Under the pieces are notes generated by a model that saw only the letters and a list, made by a program, of their open reading frames with translations, had not been told where the DNA came from and made no database searches. Below, piece by piece: positions 13,072 through 38,215 of a stretch of 64,000 bases of DNA. A program made the translations under genes and the position numbers. The stretch lies in the IMG/VR virus record IMGVR_UViG_3300008261_000042. One strand, written 5' to 3'. The first letter of the stretch is position 1. Every line of letters starts with the position of its first letter. This stretch comes from a virus.

Positions 13072-16000
13072 TACCACCAAAGGCTATAAAGAAAGTTAAG
13101 AATGAGATCCATCTAGAAATTGCTGCTGGATCTCTCATAGCCTATGGTGTATTCCCACAAACAAGTGAAGGAATACAGAAAGCAAAAGAAACTGCTGCTA
13201 GTAAAGATACATGGTTAGCACCATCAGATCTTCCTGAATATTATGATACTATTGAAAATGATTTAATAATCGGAAAAGAAACGGAAGGCATTCGTGCTAT
13301 TCGTAGACACCTAAAAGAATTTTATGATATCTCTTCTGCTGGTGCTGAAGTTGCGGTTGATACTAGAGTATCGGCTCCAGCACCAGCAGAAAAGAAAAAC
13401 AATAGACCAGCAACTCCTGCTGGTATACAAATACATTGGTTTTCGCTTAATCAAGTTGGACCAAGTGTTTGGGAAACGTTAAAAGCACAACTTACTGGGA
13501 AAGGTTATTTTTCTGAGGTAGATTTATCAGAAAAAGATGCTGATAAATTGATCGCTAATATTAAGAAGAGTGGAGAGTTTCCCTCACTTGAAGATCAATC
13601 GGGAATACACAACGAAGTATATCAAAACTGGTTAGTAGATACATATCTACCTGAATATAGAACAAAGAAAATTTATGAACAACCAGAAAAAATAGTAGTA
13701 AATGATAAACCAAAAGAAGAAAAAGAAGTAGCAGTCAAAAAGAATGTAAACCACCCAAAATTACCTTTACATTTACAAAAAGTTCATACCCATTATCTTT
13801 GGGGAAACAGAGGAAAATATAGTGTATATTTTGAATCTGATATTGATAAAGCCATTTATCATTCTCTTGTTAAATCAACAGATAAAGAAGGTTACTATAG
13901 TAAAACCACTCAACAAAAAACAATAGATTTTAGAACGTGGTTATTTGAAGCTACTGGCTTATCGATACATGATATGAAAGATTATGATATAATTAAATCT
14001 TATAAGAAAAAAATTCTTGAAACGATACGAGAAATACTAAACAATGATGATGTAGGTGAAATAGAAGTTCCTCCTGTTTATGATGGGTTTTATCAAGATC
14101 CAGAAGAGTATGAAGAAGAAGAAGAGGAAGATGAAGAAGATTATGATGAAATGGATGAAGAAGAGGATGATGAAGAAGAGGATGATGATCTTTATGGCAA
14201 CAGCTTAGATGATCTTCTTGGAAATGTAAGGGATGAAGAAGCGGAAGATCCAGAAGATCCAGAAGAACTTAAGGATCAGATTGAAGAGAAGAAAAAAGAG
14301 CTAGAAGATGCTGTAGAAGAAGAACAAAGTACAACTCGTCGTAAGACACTTGCTGAACGAATGCAGGAAGCATTTGAAGGTAAATTTGGAGAAGATTTTG
14401 AAGAAGATGAAGATGATGACGATTTTGAAGAAATAGATTATGAAGAAGATGATGGCATGGGATCGGAGGAAACTATCCCAGATGAAGTATTAGATGATTC
14501 TATTGATCCAACAACACTAGAAGAAGTACTCAACAAAAAAAGAAAGAAAACAGGAACTAAAGAAAGAAAATCTTACTACGTTTCTAATACTAAACTACTG
14601 CAAGGCATTACCAAAAGTTTAGCAGCAGTTACTGGACAGCTTGAGCAAGTAAATCAATCTTTGCTTGAGCAGAATGATTTAATTAGAACAAATATTGAAA
14701 TAAGTACAGCGTCACTTGAAGCATTACAAGCTCAGGACGATATCCTTACAAGAAAATTTGATGCTATTTTAAATGCTTTTCAGAAACAATATGAACAATC
14801 TGAAAAAGCAAAAGAAGATATTGATAGATTAAAAGCAGAGCAAAAATTAGAAGGACAGTATGATTCTGCTGGGATAGAAGTTCCTGAAGATTTAACTAAA
14901 GAAAAACCTGGCAAAAAAAGAACTAATAGAATACAACAATATTATAGACAAAAATTAGTACGTAATTTATACAGAAAACTTCCTAAGAGATTAAGATCAT
15001 TAAGAACTGCTGGAAGAAAAGTACAAAGAGTTCCTGGTAAAGCAGTTGGTAGAATTAGTAATGCAGCTGCTGGTAAAATCAATAGAATGCTTCCAGCAAA
15101 AGCAGCAAATTTTGGTAAGAATATAGCTTCAGCTAGATCTGCTGCTCAAGGAATGGGTGGAGTATCCAAAATAAAAGGTGTTGGTAGAAATGTTCCTGGA
15201 TTAAAACAGGCACTTGCTGTTTGGGAATATGGTGATAGAAAATCAGCAGGACAAAGTGATGTACAGGCAGCTGTAGGTGTCGGTGGTGGTCTTGCTGGTG
15301 CTGCTGCTGGTGCGGCGATAGGCACCATGCTGTTCCCTGGTGTAGGAACCTTAGCTGGTCTTCTAATTGGCGCTGCGTTCAGTGCTGCTGGTGGTTATGC
15401 TGGGGCTAAAATTGCTGATACAGTTACTGGAGCTGATAAAAAACAATATGAAATGGGCACAGAAGAAGCAAAACCAGGAACTGCTATTCTTCACGGCACA
15501 GAAATGCTGATTGATAAAGATAAAGCAGATCAATTCAATCCATTTAATTCAGCTGGAGGAATTTTAGTTTCTGCTGCATCCAAATTTATTAATGGTCTTG
15601 GTCCTGCTGGTGCTTCTATTGCTCCAATGTTTGAACAAAAAGCAGCACCGTTAATTAAATTATTTGGACTTCCATCAACGACAGCACAGACAAATGTTGG
15701 GGGTAGTTTCTCTTATCTTGGAGGAACATTTAATGGAATCAAAAATAAAAAGAAAAAGCAATCAATGAAAGATGGATTTGAGGGTATGTCCCGTGAAGAA
15801 ATAGAAGCATTGCAGGGAGATCCTGAGAGTTTTGCTGAAAAATTACTGAAGATGATAGATCCAGAAGACAAGTTTAAAAATTTCTTGGATAACTTAGCAA
15901 AGAAAATAAGAAATCCATTTGCTCCATTAGAAGATTATGATGGTACTGGTATTGAAGGAGATCTTAAAGGTAATATTGTAAATCCAATGGAACAAGGTGA

Positions 16001-21023: not shown

Positions 21024-24000
21024 ATGGATCCAGTATTAACATCACTATTTCCTGTTCATCAGATTGGTGCTGACGGATTCAATTGGTGGATCGGTCAGAT
21101 CGAATCAAATAAGAATGACGATCCAAAGAATTCTGGAAGGTATCGAGTAAGGATCGTTGGCCAGCATTTAAAGACGTGTGATGCTACACCAACAGAAGAA
21201 TTGCCATGGGCAAATGTAGTGATGCCCGTCACAACTCCATGGTCTGATGGTGGTGTTACTGGAGCATCAGTTAATCTCAATCAAGGTAACTGGGTAGTAG
21301 GATTTTATCTTGATAATGATAAACAGAAACCAATTATCATGGGTTCTGTTGGTCATACAGCTGGTGCTACGTTACTAAAGAATGTAGAGGAAGATCCATC
21401 TCCAGGAGAAACTTGCAAGTCATTTACCACATTCCTTTCTCCTGATAGGGATCCATATAAGCATGAACCTTTACCAGAAAAAGATAAAACAAATGGTACA
21501 GTAGAAGCAGCTGCAAATTCTGCTACTGCTGCAGTTAAAGCAACTACCATAGGTCAGGCTGGTCTTCCAGCTAATGCTGTACCAGAAAAACATGCAGCTA
21601 ATTTTTATGCGTTGTTTGCAGAAAATTCAGAAACAAATCCTAATGGTGCTAAGATTTGTGTAGAAATTGCTGATCCAAAATGTGGATCTGAATCTGATTT
21701 AAAGGGAGGATTGACTAACATTCTTGGTGGTATGCTAGCTGCTAATCAACAATCAGGTGGACAACTTGGGGATTTTTATGTTAGTAAAGTTAGTGGGGAA
21801 CTAACAAGATATTTGGATGTAGGTAGATACCACGCTAACAGAGCTATTAGATTAGTTAAAAGCTTTATTGCTAGAGTTAAAGGTGAGCTAATTAAACTCA
21901 TTAGACAGGGAGTAGATTTCTTAATTGAAAATGCATTGACAGTAGAAGCTGCAGCAACAGATGCACTGGGGAATGTAAACACTGGTCCTGTAGCACCTGA
22001 TCTTGGCATTGAACCTTTCCAACCAATTGTAAAAAAAGAATCTAGATTAAAATCTATTCAAGAATTTTTAGATAAAACATTAGCAGAACTTGGATGCAGC
22101 ATTGAAGATATTACGGATAGAATTGCTCAGTGGTTAACTGATTTATTACTTGGCTTCTTAATGGATGCATTTAATGCTGCTACTTGCTTAGTAGATACTT
22201 TAGTTAATGGTATTATAAATCAGATTGTTTCGCTACTCGAAACATTAATTTCTAGTATTCTGGGACCACTGCAAGCAATTCTTTCTATTGCAGCAGCACC
22301 TTTAAATTTAATTGGCTCTGCAATTAATACTGTATTAGGTTTGCTTGGTATTTCTTGTGATGGTCCAGCAGAACAATGTCAAAAAATTAAAAAGGAATGC
22401 ACTGAATGTGACACCGAAGAGACGGAAGATTGGTTGGATAAATTAATTAATCAAATTGAAGATGGAGAATCTGCTGGTGATTCTGTTTGTTCTGATGCAA
22501 AGAAGTTCCCTACAATCAGAAAAACAAATGTAGTTGCTGTTGGTGGTGTATTTACTCCAGCTCCTGGCTCTAATATTCCTGGCACTACAACTACTGGACC
22601 TTCTGGAGGAACGACTAGCACTCCTGGCTCTGGTGGTGGAATAACACTAAGTACAGTTAATAGTATTTCTTATAGCTGTTCTGATATTACGGTTACTGAG
22701 GGTAATTTTGCTGTGTTTAATATAACTAGAGCTGGTAATACATTGTTCACATCAAGTTTGTCTTATACTATCACTGATTTAACAGCAAAATATAATGAAG
22801 ATTATACTGGTGTCGTAGTTGGTACAGTAGGATTTGCTAGAGGAGAAAGATCAAAAACTATTCAGATTAGAACTTTTAGAGATAGAAAAACGGAAGGCGT
22901 TGAAGAATTTCAGCTTGTATTAGTACCAGCATCTACTCCTGCTGGAATTACACCTAGATTTCCCAATGGAAATACATTTAAGTGTGCTATTACTGACTTT
23001 AAAAATAATAATTACGGTCCAGTTGTTGGATCTACTCCATCCATACCACCTCAAACAACAACAGTAGTTCCTGTAACACCAATTACATTAAGTCCATCAA
23101 CAAATCCGTTGAGGAAAACATATAAAATATCATCAGACAAATCTTACTATTATAATGGTGAAGTTATCACGTTTACAATTAATACTACAAATGTGGCTAA
23201 CAATACTGTATTAAGCTATGAAGTTGATGGCTCTATTAATGCTGCTGACGTTGCAGAAAGTTTAACAGGTCAAGTTACTATAGTAAACAATACTGCTACA
23301 TTAAAATTTACTACAGTTGATGATACAGATGCAACAAATGAAACATTAACTTTAAGTTTACTCAATACTCCAGCATTCAAAACAGTTTCTATTATTGCAG
23401 ATAGTATTCCAACATATGATGTTATAGCTGATAGAACTGTTGCTGAAGAGGGTAACAAGATTACATATACTATTACTACAGCTAATGTGGCTAATGGCAC
23501 TATATTAAATTATACTTTATCTGGTGGAATAGATCGTTTAGATATCATTGGATATAGTTTAACAGGTTCATTTGAAATTCAAAACGATAAAGCAACAGTA
23601 GAAATTCAGTTAACTAAAGATGGAACAATAGAACAAAGTGAATTGCTTACATTTACTATTGATAACACAACAGCTTCAGTTGATGTTATTGTTCTACCTG
23701 ACATACAAATTTTAACAGACCCAGATTTAACTAGAGTAACTGTAACCACTGACAAATTAAATTATGATGAAGGAGAAACTATAACTTACACAATTACTAC
23801 TAATAATATACCAGATGGAACTGTATTCCAATATTCTTTATTTGGGGAGTCAATTACTCCATCTGATATTTCTGGTGGATCTTTGTATGGTACATTCACA
23901 ATCTTAAACAACCAAGCAAAGGTTTATGTTGGTATTGAAGATGATACTCAAATAGAAAAGGATGAGACATTAACATTTAGTGTTAATGGAACTGGAGCAT

Positions 24001-24605
24001 CAGCTCAGGTTATTATTAATACAGATCCTAGTGATGAGATAGAAGATGATCCAGATATCGCAGTTCCTTGCGTAACTCCACCAACATTTGGAACACCAAT
24101 CACCGATGCAAAAGGATCGATCATTAGTATTCCTATTGTGGAAAGAGGATGCCCATACCAAACACCACCAACTATTATTATTTCTGGTAATGGATATGGT
24201 TCTAGAGCTATTCCTTTACTTGATGATAAAGGTTATGTTACTGAAGTTAGATTAACAAAGACAGGAACTAATTACCTGAAGAATCTACCAGATCCTAATC
24301 TCCGTTGTGTTATTGATTCATTTACATTATTGAATCCAGGAAGAGATTATACTTCTGCTCCTAAAGTAATCATCAATGGAGAAAAAGATCTTGCAGAAGC
24401 ATTGGTAAATAGTGATGGTTACGTTTATAGTGTAAGAATACTTGATAGATCTAAAGAGTATTACGAAATTCCATCTATCATTATCCAAGGTGGTGGTGGA
24501 TCTGGAGCTAGAGTCCTTCCTAATATTGTTTGTAAGGATCCTCTCGAACTTGAAAGTATTGGTTATGCTAAGATTGGAACAGGTAAGTATATTGATTGCC
24601 CATAA
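21024..24605 (+). CDS. gp5: gp5-like baseplate hub protein (OB-fold N-terminus) with Calx-beta/Ig-like repeats
   Basis: GADGFNWWIGQIE, GRYRVRIVGQH, LPWA, VVGFYLD...QKPIIMG; tandem beta-sandwich repeats follow. Confidence 0.85.
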   Translation: MDPVLTSLFPVHQIGADGFNWWIGQIESNKNDDPKNSGRYRVRIVGQHLKTCDATPTEELPWANVVMPVTTPWSDGGVTGASVNLNQGNWVVGFYLDNDKQKPIIMGSVGHTAGATLLKNVEEDPSPGETCKSFTTFLSPDRDPYKHEPLPEKDKTNGTVEAAANSATAAVKATTIGQAGLPANAVPEKHAANFYALFAENSETNPNGAKICVEIADPKCGSESDLKGGLTNILGGMLAANQQSGGQLGDFYVSKVSGELTRYLDVGRYHANRAIRLVKSFIARVKGELIKLIRQGVDFLIENALTVEAAATDALGNVNTGPVAPDLGIEPFQPIVKKESRLKSIQEFLDKTLAELGCSIEDITDRIAQWLTDLLLGFLMDAFNAATCLVDTLVNGIINQIVSLLETLISSILGPLQAILSIAAAPLNLIGSAINTVLGLLGISCDGPAEQCQKIKKECTECDTEETEDWLDKLINQIEDGESAGDSVCSDAKKFPTIRKTNVVAVGGVFTPAPGSNIPGTTTTGPSGGTTSTPGSGGGITLSTVNSISYSCSDITVTEGNFAVFNITRAGNTLFTSSLSYTITDLTAKYNEDYTGVVVGTVGFARGERSKTIQIRTFRDRKTEGVEEFQLVLVPASTPAGITPRFPNGNTFKCAITDFKNNNYGPVVGSTPSIPPQTTTVVPVTPITLSPSTNPLRKTYKISSDKSYYYNGEVITFTINTTNVANNTVLSYEVDGSINAADVAESLTGQVTIVNNTATLKFTTVDDTDATNETLTLSLLNTPAFKTVSIIADSIPTYDVIADRTVAEEGNKITYTITTANVANGTILNYTLSGGIDRLDIIGYSLTGSFEIQNDKATVEIQLTKDGTIEQSELLTFTIDNTTASVDVIVLPDIQILTDPDLTRVTVTTDKLNYDEGETITYTITTNNIPDGTVFQYSLFGESITPSDISGGSLYGTFTILNNQAKVYVGIEDDTQIEKDETLTFSVNGTGASAQVIINTDPSDEIEDDPDIAVPCVTPPTFGTPITDAKGSIISIPIVERGCPYQTPPTIIISGNGYGSRAIPLLDDKGYVTEVRLTKTGTNYLKNLPDPNLRCVIDSFTLLNPGRDYTSAPKVIINGEKDLAEALVNSDGYVYSVRILDRSKEYYEIPSIIIQGGGGSGARVLPNIVCKDPLELESIGYAKIGTGKYIDCP

Positions 24606-26008: not shown

Positions 26009-26080
26009 GGGACTGTCGCCTATTGGTTAAGGCCCACTGCTTATAACGGTGTGAACTGTGTTCAATTCACAGCAGTCCTA
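26009..26080 (+). tRNA. tRNA-Ile (anticodon TAT)
   Basis: Acceptor GGGACTG/CAGTCCT, anticodon arm CACTG-CTTATAA-CGGTG, T arm with GTTCAATTC. Confidence 0.88.
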
Positions 26081-26086
26081 CTTGTT

Positions 26087-26160: not shown

Positions 26161-26189
26161 TTGACAATCTCAGCAATCCATGCTATGAT
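26161..26189 (+). promoter_or_regulatory. Sigma70-type promoter upstream of tRNA-Leu
   Basis: TTGACA, 17 bp, TATGAT with an extended TG. Confidence 0.8.
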
Positions 26190-26286: not shown

Positions 26287-26321
26287 TTCTCACACTAAAT
26301 ATATTGTGTGGGATTTAACAC

Positions 26322-26594
26322 ATGAAATACAAGTACACCCTATCTCAACAATATTGTTTTTACATGGGGGAAGTTGTGCGTATGTATTTCATACAAGGTA
26401 TGCCATATACCTTTGACGAACTACCTCAAATAGTTCAAGATCATCCTTCTGTACAAGCAGAAGCACTACAACATCCAGATTATGATGATGAATGGCTTTA
26501 TATGGCATCAAATTATTTGATGACAGAAGCAGCTCATCCTCTTATGTTTGATATTGAAGTTGACAATCCAGATTTATTACCAAAAGATGATTGA
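26322..26594 (+). CDS. Conserved cyanophage hypothetical protein
   Basis: VVRMYFIQGMPYTFDELP; preceded by CTAAATA (26296-26302). Confidence 0.8.
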   Translation: MKYKYTLSQQYCFYMGEVVRMYFIQGMPYTFDELPQIVQDHPSVQAEALQHPDYDDEWLYMASNYLMTEAAHPLMFDIEVDNPDLLPKDD

Positions 26595-27111
26595 AGAATT
26601 CAAAGAACTTTTAGTTGGCAAATTTGAAAACAAACTTCAGGCTTTTAAAAATCCAAGTAAGTTTGCTTATATCAGAATTACTCATGTTGATATTGGTGAT
26701 GGTCTTTACTACGGTGAACAAGCATACAACTATAATTTAAAATCTCCTTATCGTCAGTTTATTCTTGAACCTATTCAAGAAGAAAATCAAATTCGTATTC
26801 TTAACTACGAAGTTGAAGATAAGAATCAATTTAAAAATTGTCAAAACCTTGACAAGATTAATAGAAGTATGCTAAAATTAAAGAGTGGTTGTGACGTAGT
26901 TGTGACTAAAGATCAAGATTCATTTAAAGGTGGTCTTACTGGTTGTGAATGTTATGTAGATTGGATGGGTAGAAATACTTATCTTCAAAATCAAATTGAA
27001 TTGAACTCTACTCATTATTATGTAATTGACAAAGGATTTTGTGCAGAACACAATCATCAAATTTGGGGTTCTAAATATGGTAGATTTGAATTTGCAAGAA
27101 TGCCACTTTAG
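26587..27111 (+). CDS. cpeT: CpeT/CpcT-like (T-type) phycobiliprotein lyase
   Basis: GKFENKLQAFKNP, YGEQAY...PYRQ, GCDV, C.V, DKGF, QIWGSKYGRFEF motifs. Confidence 0.9.
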   Translation: MIEEFKELLVGKFENKLQAFKNPSKFAYIRITHVDIGDGLYYGEQAYNYNLKSPYRQFILEPIQEENQIRILNYEVEDKNQFKNCQNLDKINRSMLKLKSGCDVVVTKDQDSFKGGLTGCECYVDWMGRNTYLQNQIELNSTHYYVIDKGFCAEHNHQIWGSKYGRFEFARMPL

Positions 27112-27175
27112 CTCAGCTGGATAGAGCAACGGTTTTGTAAACCGTAGGTCGTCGGTTCAAGTCCGACATGTGGCT
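27102..27175 (+). tRNA. tRNA-Thr (TGT)
   Basis: Anticodon arm ACGGT-TTTGTAA-ACCGT, canonical D and T arms; 5' end overlaps the cpeT stop. Confidence 0.93.
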
Positions 27176-27177
27176 TC

Positions 27178-27246
27178 CGCTATTTCATGCGCTGGAAAGA
27201 TAAACCAGAATGCCGTTATAGCGTCGGGGTGGGCACTGTCCACCCC
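27178..27246 (+). ncRNA. Candidate structured ncRNA between tRNAs
   Basis: CGCTAT/ATAGCG stem enclosing CTGG-AAAGATAAA-CCAG, then a GGGGTGG-GCACTGT-CCACCCC hairpin. Confidence 0.4.
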
Positions 27247-27250
27247 ATCT

Positions 27251-27322
27251 CCTCTGGTAGTCTATTGGTAAGGACGGGTGGACAACACACATGGAAACTA
27301 GGTTCGATTCCTAGACAGAGGT
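27251..27322 (+). ncRNA. tRNA-like element with degenerate anticodon arm
   Basis: Acceptor CCTCTG/CAGAGG, D arm GTC-TATTGGTAAG-GAC, perfect T arm CTAGG-TTCGATT-CCTAG; no U33 and no 5-bp anticodon stem. Confidence 0.7.
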
Positions 27323-27327
27323 AACAA

Positions 27328-27409
27328 GTCGATGTGGCGGAATTGGTAGACGCACTGGGTTTAGGTTCCAGTGTCTTCGGACGTGGAGGTTCAAGTCCTC
27401 TCATCGACA
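27328..27409 (+). tRNA. tRNA-Leu (TAG)
   Basis: GTCGATG/CATCGAC acceptor, loop TTTAGGT, variable arm GTC-TTCG-GAC. Confidence 0.93.
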
Positions 27410-27422
27410 TTGAATTTGGTTT

Positions 27423-27489
27423 TTCCAAATTCAACTTTTAAATCCACGAAACGGGGAAAAAATTCTCCGCCAAAAAATAGCCAAAAAAG
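27423..27489. repeat. A-tract intergenic element, copy 2
   Basis: TTCCAAATTCAA...GGAAAAAATTCTCCGCCAAAAAATAGCCAAAAAAG. Confidence 0.75.
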
Positions 27490-27502
27490 TTGAGGTAAAA
27501 AA

Positions 27503-27643
27503 ATGACGTTACTTTCAAAGAAAGATCACGAAATGGTTATCGAAGCACTTGAGGCATTAATTGAGCAAAAAGATGAAGATAATCGTTTTGAATATATGAA
27601 TCTTTTGCAGTGGGTTAAAATTAAATCAAAAGATAGCTTTTGA
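27503..27643 (+). CDS. Small hypothetical protein (46 aa)
   Basis: GAGGT RBS; MTLLSKKDHEMVIEALE...LLQWVKIK. Confidence 0.7.
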   Translation: MTLLSKKDHEMVIEALEALIEQKDEDNRFEYMNLLQWVKIKSKDSF

Positions 27644-27649
27644 TTATAT

Positions 27650-27721
<72 letters not shown>

Positions 27722-27760
27722 TTGGCGATACTGCCAAGAACCAACCCTTCCGTGTGACTT

Positions 27761-27789
27761 TAAAACCTCCCTTATCCAGGGGGGTTTTA
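27761..27789 (+). terminator. Terminator closing the tRNA island
   Basis: AAAACCTCCC...GGGGGTTTT hairpin. Confidence 0.6.
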
Positions 27790-27792
27790 TTG

Positions 27793-27800
27793 TATAAATA
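27793..27800 (+). promoter_or_regulatory. T4-type late promoter
   Basis: Perfect TATAAATA 40 nt upstream of ATG 27841. Confidence 0.85.
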
Positions 27801-27840
27801 CATTCAAGAAGAAAACACGCAGCCCAGGGTTTCGGTAATT

Positions 27841-27915
27841 ATGGCTCTTACAAGACTTGATAACCTTTACTCAAGTAAGACAGGAAAATACAAGATTCTC
27901 GTATCTTCCAGGTAA
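27841..27915 (+). pseudogene. Out-of-frame N-terminal fragment of the giant structural gene
   Basis: MALTRLDNLYSSKTGKY is the recognisable start of this cyanophage protein family, but it hits a stop at 27913-27915. Confidence 0.7.
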
Positions 27916-30900
27916 AGATAACGATAGATTCGACCAGTTTAGCATCATGTTGATGCCTGGTGATCACTATATTGATAACCGTCCTGGTCTTGTTGACCTT
28001 GATGATTCTGATAGACAGCGTTATTTTGATGCCAGAAATCTCATCAATGCCAATAGAGATGAGATTGTTGATAGAGCGTTTGCTCAAATCATGCTTGATT
28101 ATCGTGAAGATCTCTGGGGAACTAATTGGGTTGTTCCTGGTGATGATGTAACTGATGAATTTTCACGTTATAAAGATGCATATCGTCTAATTCAAAAAAA
28201 TAGACAACAAATTATTGATACTGCTTATGCAGAAATTGCTATTCAGCATCCTACATTTGTAAACCCAAATCCAGTAAAGTGCCAAAGAGATATTGGATAC
28301 TTTATTGATGCAGTTTCTCTTGATATTTCTCTTGGTGGTGCTAATAAGTACACCAGAAAATTCCTACAAAATTACTTCTCTGGCAACACTTGGAAATCTA
28401 ACACTCTTGAAGGAGAAGAGGTAGAATCCAATACTGCATTTACTAAAGCATCTGCTTTGATGAAGCAAGCAGTTGCTAATCAACTAGTTTATAAGGATCT
28501 TACTATTACTCCAGATCCTTCATATGGATCGAATACAAATCCAGGAGTTTGTGGTAACGTTCAAACAGCTATTGATACCCTTAAAATTTTAGTAACTTCA
28601 TATGTTACTCAGGGTAATATCGATGATCTTGATACAGAAGCACCAGAAACAGTTCCAGAAGCTGGTGCTGGAATGTCTAAGTGTAAGCGTGATATTGGCT
28701 ATATTGTAGATGCTGTTGCTTCTGATATCGGTAATGGTGGTAATGCTAGTGTCATTGCTGCAACTAAAGCATATTTTAATGCAAATGGTACTCCAATTTC
28801 CAATGGATTAGTTGGTGAAGTAACTCAATCCGTTATTGCATTTAATTCTGCCAAGCTAATGATGCAGAAGGCAGTAACAAATCAGCTATATGTTAAAGAT
28901 TTAACATTATCTGAAGGTCCAGCTGATTATTCTGCTGGTGGTGCTGCAATTCCAAATCTACCATCAGGAAATCCAGCAACTTGTGTTGATGTACAAGCAT
29001 CTATTGCAACTCTAGTTAACATTATTACTTCTTCAATTGAAGATGGTAATTTAGATGGTCTTGCTGATCTAGAAATTAGTGGTGATATTCCTGTATTCTA
29101 TTTTGATCAGGCAAAGCAAGAATGGAATGATCAATCAGTATTGGATCTTTCCAACCCAGATAACGTACTATATAAGTTCAATGCTTCTACGGGTGGTGCT
29201 ATCGTACCTAGAGGCTGTTCACTCGTTGGTTATGACCTTCGTAGAACTATTGTACGTCCTCTTTATGTTCCAGATCCTGCTGACGGAACACAAGGAAGAA
29301 CATCAATCTTTAATCTAACTGGTGGTTGCTATATTTGGCAGTTTACTATCAAAGATGGTGATCTATCAGAAAATTCACCTCTATATGATGCAAATGATAG
29401 AGTTGGTAAAGTATATTTCCAGAAGGGTAACAATAGTCAGCTAGCGATTCCTGAGTATTCGCACCATAAGATTACAATTATGGAATATGCGGAGGACTTT
29501 GAACTTGAAAAGTATTACCAGAAAGTTGGTAAGGCGTTCTCTCTATTCCAGCCAACAATTGATAATGGCGATTTTGAAGCACTTCCTCAAGAAAATAGAA
29601 TTGTTGGACCTCTTTCTGATACCAGAAGCATTGTAAATCTACGTCTTGTTTCACAATCACAATCTGGTGGAAGAGATAAAACTCTTATTGAAGCTACCAC
29701 AAAAATTCCTCACGGATATTTTGTGGGCCAATCTATTGCAATTATTGATACTCAAATAAGCGATCTTTTAAATGGAACTTTTAAGGTTGCTGCAGTTGAT
29801 GATACAGATCCAAAGAAATTCCGTTACGAGGTAGAAGCAACTCCTACTATTCTTGGTCTTGAAATTAATGCTGAAGGATATGATGCTGGATCAACCCCAG
29901 CATTAAGTGTCAACTGTAGAGCACAAGCAGAAATTGACTCTGTAGAATCTGCATCACCATATGTCTTCAACTGCTCAATCAGATCCACCTGGGGTCTCTG
30001 TGGCATGTGGGCAGATGGTGCTAAGGCAACTGGTTTCCGTTCGATGGTTGTTGCACAGTATACTGGTGTTTCTCTGCAGAAAGATGACCGTGCTTTCATC
30101 CGTTACGACGAATTTAGCAACACATGGAACCAAGCATCACTAACTGATGCTTTTGCTACTGTTCCTTATCACACCAAGGGCGATGCTTATTGGAAGGATG
30201 ACTGGAGAAACTTCCACATTCGTGCTTCTAATGATGCATTCATTCAGTGCGTTTCGGTCTTCGCTGTTGGATTCTTTGATCACTTCTTGATGGAGTCTGG
30301 TGGTGACATGTCCATCACCAACTCTAACTCAAACTTCGGTAACACTTCTCTACACGCTATTGGTCATAAAGGATTTGCTTTTAACCAAGATAAAGGTGGT
30401 TATATTACTGATATTATTCCTGTCAAGGAAATTGATGATAGTGCTTTCAATCAAGAAGATCAAAAGTATTATTCTATTGCTATTCAACCAACCAAAGACC
30501 CTTCAAATAAGACAAAATTATACTACGGCACAGACGAAGCATATAATCCTTTCTTAAAGCCAGCTACATCTATTAATGGTTATAGATTGGGTGCTAAAAC
30601 TAATGAAAAGTTATTTGTAAAAATTAAATCAAGTGTAGGAACGACTATTCCATTTGAAAGCACTGTTTCTCCATCTGGATTTAAGCGTTATACAGTTGCT
30701 TTACAAACATTAAACCCAGATGGTATTGTTATCAACAATTTAGCACAAGATGCTGCTAATTTAATTGAAGATAATAAGGCATTTATTCAAAAAGAAGCAT
30801 ATGGATATATTACAGCAAAATATCCAGATCTTTTAACAAATACTAATATTACTATTTCAAAGTGTGAAAGAGATATTGGTTATTTTGTTGATGCTGTAGT

Positions 30901-33900
30901 TTCTGACCTAAGATTAGGTGGAAATATTAATACAATTCAAGCAGCGGAAGGTTATTATGTTGGTGGTCAGCTTGCATATATTCAAAATGAACTTAATGAA
31001 TCGTTAGAAGCATACGATTATGTTAAGAATTTGTGCATTTCTGCGATGAGAAACTTTGATTATCTCATCCGTAATTGCACTACTATTGCTGGCTCTGCTA
31101 TTGTTGATATTGGAGATACTACTGGTATTGTTATTGGTATGAAAGCTACTCAATATGAGTATAATACTACCAATTTTACTAATGGTAAATTAAACACAAA
31201 TGCAACTCCAATTACATCTGCAATTCCATCTGGTGCTTATGTAAAAAGAATTATTGATAGCTCAAGAATTGAATTAGGTGTTCAAGGAAGCTATTTGAAT
31301 ACAGGAACTACGGTAACAGCTAATATTTCTACTGGATCTGCATATATTTACTTTGAACTTCCTAAAACAGCAAGTTTAACTGATAACGAAAATCTTCTTT
31401 CTGGTGTTTGGTCATCAGTAAATGCTAAGCGTGATCCAACAGTAATTCAAGATGCTACAGCATGGGAAATTAGTGATCCTGATGGATATCCAGAGTGCAG
31501 TGGAGTTGCTACTACTATTATTGGCTATTTTACTAATATTTCTCTAATTTTAAGTCAGGGACTTACTCCAGTTGGTGGTAGATGGGTAGACGCATCAAAT
31601 CTTATTTTAGCCAACAAGAATTTAATTGCTAATGAAGCAGTTGCTAGAATGTTAGCAGCAAATCCAGGATTCTCTGTTCCTGGTGGTAATCAAAATTGTA
31701 TTGATGATGTATTACAAATTATCGATGCTTTAGCATTTAACGTAAAATATGGTAGCAATAATAGAATTTATGATGCTGCAAAAATTTATGTAGAACAACC
31801 AAATCTTCTATCTGGAGAAAGAGAACAATCAGTAGAAGTATATCTTGAAGTTAGAAATATGGCTATCCAAGCCATGAGAAATGAAACAATCAATATACAA
31901 GGATCTCATGGTTTAACCCAAACTATTGATAATAGTGTACTACTTGAGTATGATGGAAATGGTAATTTAGTAACACCAGCTTGTGCTGATGTAGCTAGTG
32001 CTATTACTACACTAATGGCAATTATTACGAATGCTATTGGTACAGAAGCAGATCCAGGTGATTTAATCGGTATTGTTAGAACTGCTCCTACATTTACTAA
32101 TATTACTAGAGTAGAGCCTGTTCTTGATACAGCAAACCTTGCCGCAAGATCAACCATCTTTACCGTAAATACTGGTCAAGGTTCTTCTAACCCTCATAAT
32201 TTTGAAACTGGAACTCCAGTTCGTCTCGTTCCTAAGGCAAGAGAGGGTACAAATCCTGACAAGAGAGTTATTAGACTTCCCAGAGGATTTGAAACAAATA
32301 CAATTTATTATGTAATTGCTCCTGGTAGAAAAACAACCCCAGAAGACTATTCAAATTCTGCTAAGTATCAAGATATTTTCACTGCAGATGCTTCAACTCG
32401 TTTGATGCTTGCATCTACTAAAGAAAATGCTGCTGCTGGTATTTACATCTATTCATCTGAAACTGATGCAATTGATCCAGATGTTCAGATTGAATTGCAA
32501 CAATATGTATTAGATGACAGTTATGATCTACATCAATATTTGTGTAATTTTGCAACTGGTCAAACTGATGTAATCCAAACCGATGTTCCACATATCTTTG
32601 ATGTTCCAGGATCTATAAACACAGTTCATAAAGTATTCTTTAGAACTTTCGGAGATCCCAATGAGTCGGAACTTCCTCAAATCTCTTCTGGAGGAACGAA
32701 TGCTGAGGTAGATCCTAATAGATATTACTACGTTAGATATGTAACTAATAAGACTTTTGCTGTATTTGAAACTGCTGCTCAAGCTATTGCTGGAACACCA
32801 AGAATTACATTTACTCCAGGATTTGGACAAAATTTCTATGTATTCTCCGACAAGAGAGAAAGCCCAGTAAGATTTGATGCAGCACTTCAAAATGACGACA
32901 CTTCAACTGGACAATGGTATGTTAATGTATTAGATGAAACATCAAGTACTAATAATATTATTGCTAGATTCCAAGAGCTTGGTGATACATTAAAAGATAG
33001 TAGAAGTAAAAATACTTTCTTCACACGTCTTGTCGATAATAGAGAAAAAGAAGATAGAATTTATCGTTTACGTTATGTAATTCCACAATATGCTGATGGT
33101 GTTCGTGATCCATTAAATGGATTTGTACTAAAAGCAAGAACTGATACAACAAGAAAACTTCTTCCTCAGCGTATTGTTTTAAGTCCAGTATCTTCTGGCT
33201 CCCCAGATCTTGCTTATTTTGAAATTCAACTTCCAACAGAAGCTGGTGGAACTATTGCACAACAGCTTGGATTACCAAAGAGTCAATTAGATCCAAACTT
33301 CTCTTATGATCCATATAATGTTAATAGTGTAAAAATTGTATCTAGTGACAAAACTTCTAGTAAAGTTTCATTTAGTATTCAGTCTGCTAGACAAGTAAAT
33401 GTAAATGGTGATAATTTATTAGAATTAACTGTATTTGATCATACGATTACTAATGATGCCTTAAAAAATGAAACTTTCGTAACAGTTAAAATCGAAGCAC
33501 CACAAGAAGGTACATTTAGAGCTACTGAAGGATTCAATACCATTATTTGGAATGGAAACTCTTCTGGATCTGCTACAATTCAGGCATACTTCAATGTTCC
33601 TGAAACAAATGAGCATTATTTAATTTTAAGAGCTGTAACTGGTTCTATCAATTACAATCCATTAATTGATACCGTATTCTATCAACCACTACTTGATGTA
33701 AATAATGATCCTGTGCTTGATAATCAAAATCAACCAGTGCAGATTTATGCCAAGCTAATCAAAAAGCCAAATAGTGTTGGTAGTCCAAATGAATCTAAGA
33801 GTAAGTCAGAAAAAGCTGATTACTTATACAGCAACAAAGATGCTAATGTCTTAACTGTAACCCCTGGTGATATTATTGAGGATGACGATGCTACTCAGTA

Positions 33901-36900
33901 TAGAGTTATTTCTGTTGAAGATTCTGGAGAAATTGAAGATTCATTCTATATCTTTGATATCAATGAAATTCAAAGAAGAATTCCAAATCAACAGGAAGGT
34001 GTTTACTATTTAACTTGTGTTAAGGGTAATGTTTCTCCATTCCCAGTTGGAGCTGGTGTTGGTACAAACTTCAGAAACTTTAAGTTCTCTCAACCAATTT
34101 CACAACTATATCCACTTGATTACAAAAATGATCCATTATGGTTCCAAATTAGACCAGATGGTTCTAGAGACACCACATTAACAGATGTTCCTGCTACTAT
34201 TTGTGCTGCTGATAATTATGTTCATGGTTTGGTAAGAACTAATGATTATAAGAATAGTGAAACTAAAGAAGTTGTTCTAGATTTAGTTAATAATCCAGCA
34301 CTTGATCGTTATGATTATACTGGATTAATTTCGGCACAATCTGGTAATGCAACCTCTGGGTCTGAAGATCGTAAGATTTCAATTGCTGGAAATTCAGTAT
34401 ATCCAACAGAAGGTAGATTATATGTAGAACTTCGTCGTCCATCTATTGCTCGTTCTGGTAACCACACGTTTGAATATCTTGGTTTCGGTCCTGGTAACTA
34501 CTCAACTGGTTTCCCACTACGTCAAGAAGTTGTTCTTTCTGATATTCAAGATTTCTATGCTCAATCTAAGCGTGAAGATGGTGGTATTGTATTCTACACT
34601 GGTCTAAACTCTAATGGAGATCTTTACATTGGTAACAGAAAGATCAATGCCATTACTGGCGAAGAAACTTTCCTAGAAAGAGCTGAACTTATTTCTTCTG
34701 ATGATGACGGTGGAGATCTTGGTAATCTTGTTACTACATTTGAACTTCCAGTTGTATTTGAAAGAGACATTACCGTTGATGGCGATGCTACATTCAACAA
34801 TCCAGTAACAATTAATGTAGAGCCAAATGAACCAAATGCATTAACTGTTATCTCTAATATTGACGCAAACTCAGGCGAAGATACTTCACTTGATAGTGCT
34901 ACATTTGCTTTAAGCACCATCGAATCTGAAGGTAACATTACACTTCATAAGAATAAAATCTATGCTGGTGTATATGCATTTAACCCAAGAGGAAGTGTAA
35001 CTATTCCTGGTCAAAATTATAGCATTAGAACTCATGCAGACCAAACAAATGGCAATTTACCTTCAAATATTACTCCAAATCAAACAAATGGAAGTTTAGG
35101 TAAGCAAGTACAATATGGTCAGAAATCACCAAAAGCTGGTGATATCTTACTAAAAGGTGTTGAAGTTGGTAAGTCTGGATCATTAGGATGGATATTTGCT
35201 AATTTCTATACAAATAAAACATCTAATGTATTTACTGTAAGAGCTGATGGTAACTTATCAGTAACCTTTACAATGCAAATTGGTATTTCGCCTACCGATA
35301 TTGGTATTGCTCAAGGAACTGAAGTTAAATTTACTGGATTTAGTGGTAGATTCCAACCAGTAAATGGAGTTAGAACTGTTTCTGCAGTAACTGCAACTAC
35401 ATTTACTATCAATACACAAGTTATTGTAGCACAAAGTCCAGATGATCCAACACGTTTAGATCAAGAACAAACTAATGCATTGATTGAGGTTTCTTCTGTA
35501 CAGTGGAAAGAAGTTGGTGTTCTTGGAGCAGAAGCATTAAGAACAAATACGGATAATTATGGCGACTTTAGACTAGGTATTAATACTTTTGCAAGAGCTG
35601 ATCACATTGATCGCTTGAATGGATTTGTTTCCGCAGCTACTCAGCCAAGAGCAAATCTTGATATTGTTGGTACTGCATTTGTAAGTGGTAAGACACTCAC
35701 AACTTCGCCAGTTAATAGCTTTGTTTCAAATCCAACTGCAGCAAATAGAGTATTTAATAACGTAGGAAATGCATTCTTAGTTGGTGGTGATAGTGTAAAT
35801 CCAGATTCAAATGCAACTTTACGTGTTGCTACTACTAATAATGGTAGAGTTGGTATTAACACAAATCTAGGAAATCTAGATAGAACATTTGTTGTTTATG
35901 GTGATGCTAGAATTACAGATGAAGTAAGATTACAAAAGAATCTTGAGGTAAATGGTGGTAATATAACTACTACACAATCATCATTCAATTTAGCAGTTAC
36001 TAATGCAACTTCTGCCGCTGCATTTAGTGTTGCTAGAAATATTTCATTGGGTACACTTGTAAGTGCAGATCAGGTTATTACTCTAGGTATTAATCCAAGT
36101 TCACAGCAAGTTAATATTGGTACATTTACTCCAGATGGAGAATTTAATGTACACAGCAATGGATCAAAATCCATTATGAATTTGGGCACATCAAATAATA
36201 CAAGTACAGCAAGTATTAGTGTTATTACTATTGGTGGTGCATTTGCAAAGAATTCAAACTCTAAAGAAGATGGTTCTGTATTCAATGTAAAAAATAGATA
36301 TACAGAATTAGATGGTGATTTATCAATTGGTACTGGATTAGTAACAGGTACTGGAATTGCTAGATTGCAGTCTAATGCGTTGCAAGTTGAGATGTTTACG
36401 GTAAACACCTCAAGATTAAACTTTGCAACTGGTGTTGGTAGATTAAGCATTGGTTCCAAAGGTGGAACAACAACGATTAATAACTCATTAGTTGTTGAAG
36501 CAAATACTACCATGAAGGGTGATGTAACTCATCTAGGTGGTTTAAATGCTGGTCAATACCAAATTAGAAGAGGTTCTTTTGCAACTCCAACTTCAGCTCA
36601 TGTAAGAGGAAGTATTGATAATACTAACATTGACTTCTTCTCAAGAGTAACAATTGATAGAACAATTGATACCCAAGGTGCTGCTGTTTGGTCTGGTGCA
36701 GAATTTTTGGTTGATTCCAATGATCCAACAGAATACTATCTACCAATCGGTCAGGTTAGCACAAATATTCAATTTGAAGTTGGTGCTTATCTATTAATTG
36801 ATAGATCAGTTCAGGTTGATCAGCAAAACACTATAATTTCTCCAGTTGGAGAACAATACAGTGAGTTATTATTAGTTACAGAGTTAACTAACTTGAATAA

Positions 36901-38215
36901 CGTTTCTGATCTTCCACTACGTATTAAAGTTAAGAGGGCAAGAAACCGTCTTGATCAAAATGGTAATATGATTGTAGATGGTGCATCACCATCTGGCTAT
37001 AAGTATCTAAGAAATGATCACCCAGATAACGCTAAGATTATTAGATATAATCTTTCGGAAGATGTTAGCTTTATTGATAACGCTAATGGTCTTGCTAATG
37101 GCATTACTGGTGCATTAGAAAATCTTTCAACTGGAGTATTCAGTGGAACAATTAAACAAGGTGATATCTTCAGACTGAGTGATTCTGAACTTACTTTCAT
37201 TAATCAAATTAATGTCACCTCACCTCAAAGATTTGTTATTAATGATGGAGGAACACCATCAGTTGATGTGTTTACAGTAGATTCTACTACTGGTGACACA
37301 GAAATTCTAGGTAATCTTAGTGTTTATAAAGATATTCGTTTACTTGGTTCAAATACAGAAAATAATCAAAGATTGATTATTAGAGATCAAAGTAATAATG
37401 ATAGATTTGTAGTTGATAGTGCTACAGGTAAAACATATATCTTCGGAAATTTAAATGTTGGAAATTCTACAAATTATAATAGATTATTTGTTGATTCTTC
37501 CAGTGGAGATACTACAATTAGAGGTGGTGATCTATTAATCACTGCTGATAATATTGATAATACTAAATTATTCTTACATAATGGTACTGGTAACTTAACA
37601 ATAAGTGGACTATTTACATCACAAACTACTTCTGGTGAAAACGTATTTAATACTGACCTTAAAGTTAATGGTAATAACTTAACATTCAACAAAGTATTAA
37701 ATATCGGTGGTGAAGATACTGAAGTTAATCTATTCAAAGTTCGCTGGATTGAGCAAGCTACAAATAGACCTTCAGGTGGTGCAATTGATTTTGCTGGACA
37801 GCAAGGATTCTTTACACAAACTGGAGCTAGAAAGTGGCAATACATACAGGCTGGACAAGATGTTGTAACAGTACAATCTAATGTTAACTATTTTGTTTCA
37901 CCTACAGCTACTACTGTGCTTAAATTACCTTCTAATCCTCTTACTGGAGATACAATTAGAGTCGTTGATGTTGGCGGAAACTTAACATATAATGTATCAT
38001 TGAAGTTTAGAGCACCATCTGGTATTGCAATTCAAGGTGATACAACTAATTCTGGAGGAACACCAGATCCAGGAACTACATATAATGGGGGAGAACTAGT
38101 AGTTCAAACTCCAAATGCTGGATTAGGACTTGTATACGTTGGACCTGTTAATTATGATGGAACGTCTACTGGTGCTCCAGCATCGCAACAAGGTTGGTGG
38201 TTAATGGAAATCTAA
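27857..38215 (+). CDS. Giant virion structural/tail-fibre-like protein (~3450 aa) with phycobiliprotein-like helical repeats
   Basis: PGDHYIDNRPG, GGAIVPRGCSLVGYDLR, SASPYVFNCS, SMVVAQYTGVSLQKDD, ELRRPSIARSGNHTFEYLGFGPGNYSTG; fibre-like C-terminus LP..P..GD.IRVVD...GWWLMEI. Confidence 0.9.
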   Translation: MITFTQVRQENTRFSYLPGKDNDRFDQFSIMLMPGDHYIDNRPGLVDLDDSDRQRYFDARNLINANRDEIVDRAFAQIMLDYREDLWGTNWVVPGDDVTDEFSRYKDAYRLIQKNRQQIIDTAYAEIAIQHPTFVNPNPVKCQRDIGYFIDAVSLDISLGGANKYTRKFLQNYFSGNTWKSNTLEGEEVESNTAFTKASALMKQAVANQLVYKDLTITPDPSYGSNTNPGVCGNVQTAIDTLKILVTSYVTQGNIDDLDTEAPETVPEAGAGMSKCKRDIGYIVDAVASDIGNGGNASVIAATKAYFNANGTPISNGLVGEVTQSVIAFNSAKLMMQKAVTNQLYVKDLTLSEGPADYSAGGAAIPNLPSGNPATCVDVQASIATLVNIITSSIEDGNLDGLADLEISGDIPVFYFDQAKQEWNDQSVLDLSNPDNVLYKFNASTGGAIVPRGCSLVGYDLRRTIVRPLYVPDPADGTQGRTSIFNLTGGCYIWQFTIKDGDLSENSPLYDANDRVGKVYFQKGNNSQLAIPEYSHHKITIMEYAEDFELEKYYQKVGKAFSLFQPTIDNGDFEALPQENRIVGPLSDTRSIVNLRLVSQSQSGGRDKTLIEATTKIPHGYFVGQSIAIIDTQISDLLNGTFKVAAVDDTDPKKFRYEVEATPTILGLEINAEGYDAGSTPALSVNCRAQAEIDSVESASPYVFNCSIRSTWGLCGMWADGAKATGFRSMVVAQYTGVSLQKDDRAFIRYDEFSNTWNQASLTDAFATVPYHTKGDAYWKDDWRNFHIRASNDAFIQCVSVFAVGFFDHFLMESGGDMSITNSNSNFGNTSLHAIGHKGFAFNQDKGGYITDIIPVKEIDDSAFNQEDQKYYSIAIQPTKDPSNKTKLYYGTDEAYNPFLKPATSINGYRLGAKTNEKLFVKIKSSVGTTIPFESTVSPSGFKRYTVALQTLNPDGIVINNLAQDAANLIEDNKAFIQKEAYGYITAKYPDLLTNTNITISKCERDIGYFVDAVVSDLRLGGNINTIQAAEGYYVGGQLAYIQNELNESLEAYDYVKNLCISAMRNFDYLIRNCTTIAGSAIVDIGDTTGIVIGMKATQYEYNTTNFTNGKLNTNATPITSAIPSGAYVKRIIDSSRIELGVQGSYLNTGTTVTANISTGSAYIYFELPKTASLTDNENLLSGVWSSVNAKRDPTVIQDATAWEISDPDGYPECSGVATTIIGYFTNISLILSQGLTPVGGRWVDASNLILANKNLIANEAVARMLAANPGFSVPGGNQNCIDDVLQIIDALAFNVKYGSNNRIYDAAKIYVEQPNLLSGEREQSVEVYLEVRNMAIQAMRNETINIQGSHGLTQTIDNSVLLEYDGNGNLVTPACADVASAITTLMAIITNAIGTEADPGDLIGIVRTAPTFTNITRVEPVLDTANLAARSTIFTVNTGQGSSNPHNFETGTPVRLVPKAREGTNPDKRVIRLPRGFETNTIYYVIAPGRKTTPEDYSNSAKYQDIFTADASTRLMLASTKENAAAGIYIYSSETDAIDPDVQIELQQYVLDDSYDLHQYLCNFATGQTDVIQTDVPHIFDVPGSINTVHKVFFRTFGDPNESELPQISSGGTNAEVDPNRYYYVRYVTNKTFAVFETAAQAIAGTPRITFTPGFGQNFYVFSDKRESPVRFDAALQNDDTSTGQWYVNVLDETSSTNNIIARFQELGDTLKDSRSKNTFFTRLVDNREKEDRIYRLRYVIPQYADGVRDPLNGFVLKARTDTTRKLLPQRIVLSPVSSGSPDLAYFEIQLPTEAGGTIAQQLGLPKSQLDPNFSYDPYNVNSVKIVSSDKTSSKVSFSIQSARQVNVNGDNLLELTVFDHTITNDALKNETFVTVKIEAPQEGTFRATEGFNTIIWNGNSSGSATIQAYFNVPETNEHYLILRAVTGSINYNPLIDTVFYQPLLDVNNDPVLDNQNQPVQIYAKLIKKPNSVGSPNESKSKSEKADYLYSNKDANVLTVTPGDIIEDDDATQYRVISVEDSGEIEDSFYIFDINEIQRRIPNQQEGVYYLTCVKGNVSPFPVGAGVGTNFRNFKFSQPISQLYPLDYKNDPLWFQIRPDGSRDTTLTDVPATICAADNYVHGLVRTNDYKNSETKEVVLDLVNNPALDRYDYTGLISAQSGNATSGSEDRKISIAGNSVYPTEGRLYVELRRPSIARSGNHTFEYLGFGPGNYSTGFPLRQEVVLSDIQDFYAQSKREDGGIVFYTGLNSNGDLYIGNRKINAITGEETFLERAELISSDDDGGDLGNLVTTFELPVVFERDITVDGDATFNNPVTINVEPNEPNALTVISNIDANSGEDTSLDSATFALSTIESEGNITLHKNKIYAGVYAFNPRGSVTIPGQNYSIRTHADQTNGNLPSNITPNQTNGSLGKQVQYGQKSPKAGDILLKGVEVGKSGSLGWIFANFYTNKTSNVFTVRADGNLSVTFTMQIGISPTDIGIAQGTEVKFTGFSGRFQPVNGVRTVSAVTATTFTINTQVIVAQSPDDPTRLDQEQTNALIEVSSVQWKEVGVLGAEALRTNTDNYGDFRLGINTFARADHIDRLNGFVSAATQPRANLDIVGTAFVSGKTLTTSPVNSFVSNPTAANRVFNNVGNAFLVGGDSVNPDSNATLRVATTNNGRVGINTNLGNLDRTFVVYGDARITDEVRLQKNLEVNGGNITTTQSSFNLAVTNATSAAAFSVARNISLGTLVSADQVITLGINPSSQQVNIGTFTPDGEFNVHSNGSKSIMNLGTSNNTSTASISVITIGGAFAKNSNSKEDGSVFNVKNRYTELDGDLSIGTGLVTGTGIARLQSNALQVEMFTVNTSRLNFATGVGRLSIGSKGGTTTINNSLVVEANTTMKGDVTHLGGLNAGQYQIRRGSFATPTSAHVRGSIDNTNIDFFSRVTIDRTIDTQGAAVWSGAEFLVDSNDPTEYYLPIGQVSTNIQFEVGAYLLIDRSVQVDQQNTIISPVGEQYSELLLVTELTNLNNVSDLPLRIKVKRARNRLDQNGNMIVDGASPSGYKYLRNDHPDNAKIIRYNLSEDVSFIDNANGLANGITGALENLSTGVFSGTIKQGDIFRLSDSELTFINQINVTSPQRFVINDGGTPSVDVFTVDSTTGDTEILGNLSVYKDIRLLGSNTENNQRLIIRDQSNNDRFVVDSATGKTYIFGNLNVGNSTNYNRLFVDSSSGDTTIRGGDLLITADNIDNTKLFLHNGTGNLTISGLFTSQTTSGENVFNTDLKVNGNNLTFNKVLNIGGEDTEVNLFKVRWIEQATNRPSGGAIDFAGQQGFFTQTGARKWQYIQAGQDVVTVQSNVNYFVSPTATTVLKLPSNPLTGDTIRVVDVGGNLTYNVSLKFRAPSGIAIQGDTTNSGGTPDPGTTYNGGELVVQTPNAGLGLVYVGPVNYDGTSTGAPASQQGWWLMEI

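Follow-up and report, generated by a model that had tools for sequence, protein, structure and literature searches.

Bilins are attached to phycobiliproteins at defined cysteines, with T-type lyases being specific for Cys155, S-type or E/F-type lyases serving Cys84 and ApcE attaching its own bilin (PMC2327270). A T-type lyase gene, cpeT, is also carried by cyanophages, including phages of Prochlorococcus, hosts which lack intact phycobilisomes, and the role of the phage gene has been called unresolved (PMC3037559). One such gene is present in a 64,000-nucleotide stretch of viral DNA, IMG/VR record IMGVR_UViG_3300008261_000042, that forms part of a T4-like cyanomyovirus and is termed the window here. 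An earlier note on this DNA proposed that the cpeT product acts on a substrate encoded by the phage itself, namely, a giant virion protein whose repeats each keep a β-155-like Cys. Our analyses indicated that the repeats are phycobiliprotein-derived domains inside a 3452-aa tail protein and are not antenna subunits. We lean towards the view that the Cys155-type sites of virion proteins receive their bilin from phage CpeT, a view in which the proposal of the earlier note is retained on new grounds (the phycobiliprotein fold, the presence of repeats in 14 of 14 cpeT-bearing isolates and the existence of one-Cys phages without cpeT), its original arguments from adjacency and late timing having proved weak.

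The cpeT gene is located on the plus strand at 26587..27111 (ATG 26587, stop 27111) and encodes a protein of 174 aa. This protein was matched by Pfam CpeT (PF06206; E 2.3e-39, 135.6 bits, cut-off 21) and by phrog_488 and exhibited full-length homology, over residues 9-172, to Nostoc CpcT (PDB 4o4o; E 7e-22). The equivalents of CpcT Tyr65, Cys116, Cys137, Asp163 and Trp175 are invariant in 21 relatives; in the window protein, the Arg66 equivalent is also kept and the equivalent of His33 is a Tyr. All seven are bilin-pocket positions in CpcT. PDB entry 5hi8 ('antenna protein') is presumably the CpeT of phage P-HM1. On the evidence of homology, cpeT is a genuine gene for a T-type bilin lyase, in agreement with the earlier note. 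The nearest isolate for these genes is Synechococcus phage Sf-FR1, with 56% identity in CpeT and 68% in the repeat region. Many phage CpeTs are short, having open frames of 135-165 aa.

Four repeats were delimited on the plus strand within the giant gene: repeat 1 at 28169..28618 (Cys84-type codon 28280, Cys155-type codon 28550), repeat 2 at 28637..29050 (codons 28682 and 28982, respectively), repeat 3 at 30746..31558, which is split by an insertion of ~120 aa (codons 30863 and 31496), and repeat 4 at 31589..32044 (codons 31697 and 31982). Every repeat keeps a Cys155-type residue; in the global hhalign profile alignment, Cys129 of the repeat was placed on Cys153 of CpcB, and this Cys starts the last helix in the AlphaFold2 (AF2) model. 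Cys84-type sites, which the earlier note had missed, are present as part of a complete Cys84-x-Arg86-Asp87 motif in repeats 1-3, with repeat 4 having an Asp at the Arg86 position. Across a 98-row alignment of repeats, the Cys84-type residue was kept in 93 rows, Arg86 in 83, Asp87 in 94 and the Cys155-type residue in 86.

The 3452-aa frame gave a PF00502 match of 36.3 bits, over the cut-off, and the 98-row repeat profile aligned with residues 39-103 of phycocyanin (α) and phycoerythrin subunits, a segment that contains Cys84-x-Arg86-Asp87 (E 1e-5). An AF2 model of repeat 1 (predicted local distance difference test score, 95) was closest to residues 34-184 of phycoerythrin β (5aqd_M; Z 15.9, root mean square deviation 2.0, 134 residues aligned), with ApcE second (Z 14.2) and non-bilin globins at a Z of 10.9 or lower. 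The Foldseek matches listed for the repeat were all phycobiliproteins, with E values of 2e-3 or weaker. Repeats searched singly against the PDB produced no match, such that matches came from the profile and fold searches alone, and an ESM Atlas shape search of the repeat gave no informative match. Structure and profile matches begin at subunit residue 34-39, and the N-terminal α-β pairing helices are absent. These analyses demonstrated that each repeat is a phycobiliprotein core with both attachment positions but without pairing helices. Bilin attachment to these domains appears probable. A predicted complex of CpeT with repeat 1 had a score of 0.01 and was counted neither for nor against an interaction.

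Matches to the repeats were found in 350 phage records, all named cyanophages except for one marine virus, and in 1,537 representative proteins. Up to 34 copies are present per protein, and the proteins containing them are mostly of 1,000-8,000 aa and annotated as tail fibre, gp7 or virion structural protein. The best 150 of the 1,537 proteins (1492 domains) were examined for their cysteines and were bimodal, with both cysteines kept in 54 proteins and the Cys155-type residue found in no repeat of the other 96. Cys-x-x-Asp was kept in 1449 of these 1492 domains, most other positions being variable. The one-Cys class was found in T4-like phages of 320-330 kb; these jumbo phages were G004 (L079, L126), which has 18 repeats, G012 (L266) and G013 (L285). 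Three near-complete one-Cys phages (92, 93 and 100%) have neither cpeT nor psbA, and two of the three contain adjacent heme oxygenase and bilin reductase genes. Abundant repeats in non-cyanobacterial phages with no access to bilins had been named in the earlier note as evidence that would speak against its proposal. Repeats were indeed seen in the absence of a photosynthesis marker, but these phages mostly have their own bilin supply and their repeats have no T-lyase site, an outcome that is consistent with the model and does not refute it. When a one-Cys repeat was used to scan prokaryote genomes, a search of low sensitivity, no relative was detected. In P-SSM4 (L117, about 70.5-75.7 kb), which carries cpeT and a bilin reductase gene, Cys84, Arg86 and Asp87 have been lost, the Cys84-type residue from all repeats that were detected, and one nested domain has a Cys155-type site. 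Losses of the two cysteines, Cys1 and Cys2, are independent of each other among repeats, and an obligate Cys1-Cys2 disulfide was, therefore, rejected.

The association between cpeT and the repeats was examined in 29 isolate genomes searched with phrog_488 and repeat profile A1, 14 of which were also searched with the one-Cys profile A2. Absences of cpeT rest on phrog_488, as this profile found the cpeT gene of ACG-2014f that Pfam CpeT had missed. Among the 28 cyanophages (the 29th genome, that of pelagiphage HTVC008M, has no cpeT and no repeats), 14 had both traits, none had cpeT only, 4 had repeats only and 10 had neither (P-SSM2, S-SSM7, S-SM2, S-CRM01, S-CAM9, P-TIM68, S-N03, S-SRM01, Bellamy and S-CREM2), giving a Fisher p of 1.5e-4 for a set of genomes that was hand-picked, partly from hit lists, and hence was not a random sample. 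All 14 cpeT-bearing isolates keep at least one Cys155-type site. Both traits were also present in three IMG/VR records that are complete or close to it (G001, G002 and G010). The 98%-complete genome G002 (L028) has two cpeT genes, of the long and short types (14618-15130 and 53278-53700), and at least two repeat-bearing genes, one of which adjoins the long-type cpeT. In a tree built from the portal proteins of 30 genomes, from which Bellamy and S-CREM2 were left out, cpeT requires six changes, four of them forced by starred branches, and both traits differ jointly within the sister pairs S-SSM7/S-SCSM2R and S-SM2/S-SCSM1. A link between repeats and bilin reductase genes in cyanophages was rejected, P-SSM2 and S-SSM7 having only the reductase and S-PM2 only the repeats; of cpeT and the bilin genes in this sample, cpeT alone tracks the repeats. 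The co-occurrence predicted by the earlier note was thus observed genome-wide and suggests real support for CpeT serving a phage tail protein.

The gene order of the window is as in Sf-FR1, namely, gp5 hub genes, a 90-aa open reading frame (ORF), cpeT, tRNAs, the giant tail gene and collar-domain genes. The location of cpeT in the virion-structural region, as claimed previously, was borne out, as gp5 hub genes precede it and tail-fibre genes follow. The gp5 homologue (21024-24605, 1193 aa) contains a Calx-beta domain (E 2.6e-9), and several of its segments are beta-rich and repeated. In ACG-2014g (L081, 2772-3441), cp12 and cpeT are neighbours, with a tail gene on one side and gp5 on the other, indicating that the structural region also houses auxiliary genes. 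A late-type CTAAATA motif is present upstream of cpeT (26295..26301, plus strand), with a similar motif at about an equal distance in most close relatives, and CTAAATA plus ATAAATA number 20 on the plus strand versus 2 on the minus strand, a bias too strong for chance. This motif precedes the 90-aa conserved hypothetical ORF (26322..26594, plus strand; phrog_4134, E 3e-38), which overlaps the cpeT start, an arrangement shared with Sf-FR1 and S-PM2, and cpeT is the second gene after the motif. A sigma70-type (early/middle) promoter-like site with an extended TG and 11/12 agreement with the consensus is located at 26161..26189 on the same strand, upstream of a tRNA-Leu, the 90-aa ORF and cpeT. 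A tRNA-Ile (26009-26081) has the anticodon TAT, which is rare among bacteria.

Downstream of cpeT, ARAGORN detected a plus-strand tRNA cluster (Thr, Leu, Leu and Asn; 27102..27722) containing a terminator-like hairpin (27410-27434). The call of tRNA-Leu(CAA) at 27251-27322 was made on an atypical tRNA-like sequence, and its identity is doubtful. The tRNA-Thr shares the last 10 nt of cpeT (27102-27111), and many cyanophages have a tRNA gene (Thr, Asp, Val or Gly) immediately next to cpeT. A further terminator-like hairpin (27766-27784) is followed by the ATAAATA late motif of the giant gene (27794-27800), the two elements spanning 27766..27800 on the plus strand. A single operon of cpeT and the giant gene was, therefore, rejected, as the two genes are separated by four tRNA calls, both terminator-like hairpins and the giant gene's own late motif, and from these signals cpeT and the giant gene are read as separately transcribed units. 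The giant gene, encoding a tail-fibre/virion protein (27841..38215, plus strand; phrog_4527, short tail fibre), starts with an ATG at 27841, 730 nt past the cpeT stop and at the spacing given in the earlier note. This ATG is out of frame with the open frame of 27857-38215 due to the absence, relative to relatives, of 107 nt at 27890/27891, after codon 17. None of the seven distinct contigs or records used for comparison lacks this stretch, and the gap could stem from faulty assembly or represent a defective variant or a restart of the gene at TTG 27857. The sigma70-type promoter, the tRNAs, hairpins and late motif at 27794 and the 107-nt deletion were all overlooked in the earlier note.

Adjacency was examined as a possible indicator of function. 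In 18 loci of the S-PM2-like group, cpeT is 0.1-2.2 kb ahead of a repeat gene. As adjacency was limited to this group, it is a feature of the clade and, not being conserved across the family, was rejected as an indication of function; in two isolates with a distant pair whose neighbourhoods were examined, cpeT was beside gp5. The late-type motif to which the earlier note pointed is present; however, this motif precedes the 90-aa ORF, and cpeT also has the sigma70-type site. Published data for P-HM2 place cpeT among the middle genes, as for other auxiliary metabolic genes, and g7 among the late genes (PMC5082946 S2 Table), and strictly late cpeT expression was rejected on this basis. The repeat-bearing gene in P-HM1, the sister of P-HM2, is g7. 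Middle-phase expression of cpeT is compatible with an enzyme being made ahead of its substrate.

A mechanism can be proposed in which the four repeats, as domesticated phycobiliprotein globin domains with both cysteines and no pairing helices, are probably loaded during infection with bilin drawn from the host pool. The Cys84-type site would be filled either by S/U-type lyases of the host or, following the example of ApcE, by self-attachment, and the Cys155-type site by phage CpeT produced from the middle phase onwards, before the late substrate. Phages having Cys155-type repeats but no cpeT may borrow a host T-type lyase. CpeT would then help to mature virion proteins instead of supporting host antennae and would act in trans, making adjacency unneeded. 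Candidate roles for a pigment in the particle are light-gated adsorption, photoprotection and host recognition. The suggestion that bilins on baseplate and tail-fibre domains make adsorption light dependent, in the manner of a virion-borne photoreceptor, is speculative, and we regard it as doubtful. Adsorption in the dark is absent in P-HM1 and P-HM2 and, in P-SSM2, occurs at a lower level than in the light, and light-dependent adsorption of S-PM2 is independent of host photosynthesis (PMC6628666). The first two phages and S-PM2 have repeats and cpeT and P-SSM2 has neither, a pattern that fits this suggestion for a total of four phages, two of which are near-identical.

Several observations weigh against a role for CpeT in loading virion proteins. 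Bilin attachment to the repeats is something that we infer, and the best-conserved Cys of the repeats is the 84-type, which is not a T lyase site. Adjacency, the synteny on which the earlier note had relied, was found in only 2 of the 14 cpeT isolates, the other 12 having the genes about 29 kb or more apart. Four isolates (B23, DSL-LC03, S-SKS1 and S-T4) have Cys155-type repeats without a cpeT detectable by phrog_488. When kinship was controlled for, only three to four independent pairs remained (mean of 2.2 concordant and 0 discordant; sign test p about 0.5, not significant), and the co-occurrence may, therefore, reflect shared ancestry, in addition to the hand-picking of genomes. These last two points, together with the middle expression of P-HM2 cpeT alongside psbA and other auxiliary genes (PMC5082946) and the sigma70-type site before cpeT, are what would be expected if CpeT were a classical auxiliary protein for host phycoerythrin or phycocyanin, the repeats being independent and filled by host lyases or self-attachment and the two traits being linked by ancestry. 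The increase in host phycoerythrin during S-PM2 infection, which was credited to cpeT (PMC2984593), also favours this explanation. Nevertheless, we consider it unlikely: none of the 14 cpeT genomes lacks repeats, over a portal tree that forces at least four gains or losses. In a 2017 study by Gasper, P-HM1 CpeT reportedly bound phycoerythrobilin (PEB) without transfer to host CpeB being shown. Carriage of cpeT by phages of Prochlorococcus, with no intact phycobilisome to support, is a further difficulty (PMC3037559).

Alternatively, CpeT may be a carrier or scavenger that holds reactive bilin from degraded antennae and either passes it to the repeats unspecifically or sequesters it. The Tyr at the His33 position, the shortness of many phage CpeTs and a search of 35 records in which no phage CpeS, as an S-type lyase for the Cys84-type site, scored above the cut-off are all in keeping with a carrier, the last also being a point against the reading that we favour. 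The invariance of five other pocket equivalents in 21 relatives and the tracking of cpeT with the Cys2 class, and not with repeats generally, render a carrier quite improbable. A similarly low probability is assigned to the repeats being pigment-free helical spacers or decoys that bind to proteins of the host, with cysteines that are disulfide bonded or relics. Some P-SSM4 repeats do lack both Cys and the Arg/Asp, and identity to phycobiliproteins is just 11-18%; against this stand the retention of Cys-x-x-Asp among otherwise variable positions, the independent loss of the two cysteines and the linked heme oxygenase and bilin reductase genes in two of three one-Cys jumbo phages without psbA.

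Chromophorylation of a virion would, if true, be categorically new. If CpeT matures virion proteins, virus particles would bear covalent pigments, the function of cyanophage cpeT would be answered and its listing among photosynthesis auxiliary genes, both for hundreds of genomes and by metabolic models (PMC13041748), would be a misfiling. It would also bear on why some cyanophages adsorb in the light alone, for which light-sensitive receptors or tail fibres have been suggested (PMC6628666). Furthermore, small monomeric bilin domains without pairing helices could serve as fluorescent tags. A literature search, with subscription journals mostly outside its coverage, found no paper on the repeats or on the pairing of a virion substrate with a phage lyase.

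Comparison with known systems places both components in described families. The window CpeT resembles cyanobacterial CpcT/CpeT (PF06206; 4o4o; 5hi8; phrog_488) in its full-length homology and retention of pocket residues but differs in being phage encoded, in the absence of cpeS and cpeR, in the Tyr for His33, in its location in the gp5 region near tRNAs and in having as its proposed substrate a virion protein and not a phycobilisome subunit. The repeats share with the CpcB/CpeB β subunits (PF00502) a globin core, Cys84-x-Arg-Asp and a Cys153/155 that starts the last helix, with the sequence around Cys84 being α-like; unlike these subunits, they have no pairing helices and are present in tandem or nested in large virion proteins. 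The bilin domain of ApcE/Lcm (4xxi) is likewise of the phycobiliprotein type and forms part of a large structural protein, and its self-attachment (PMC2327270) is a precedent for the Cys84-type site of the repeats, but ApcE has just one such domain, which lies within the phycobilisome core and lacks a Cys155-type site. Cyanophage ho1, pebS and pcyA are, like cpeT, phage-encoded bilin pathway genes whose role has been called a mystery (PMC3037559); unlike cpeT, they did not track the repeats in our sample. The apparently new part of the system is the combination of a proposed virion substrate with a phage lyase.

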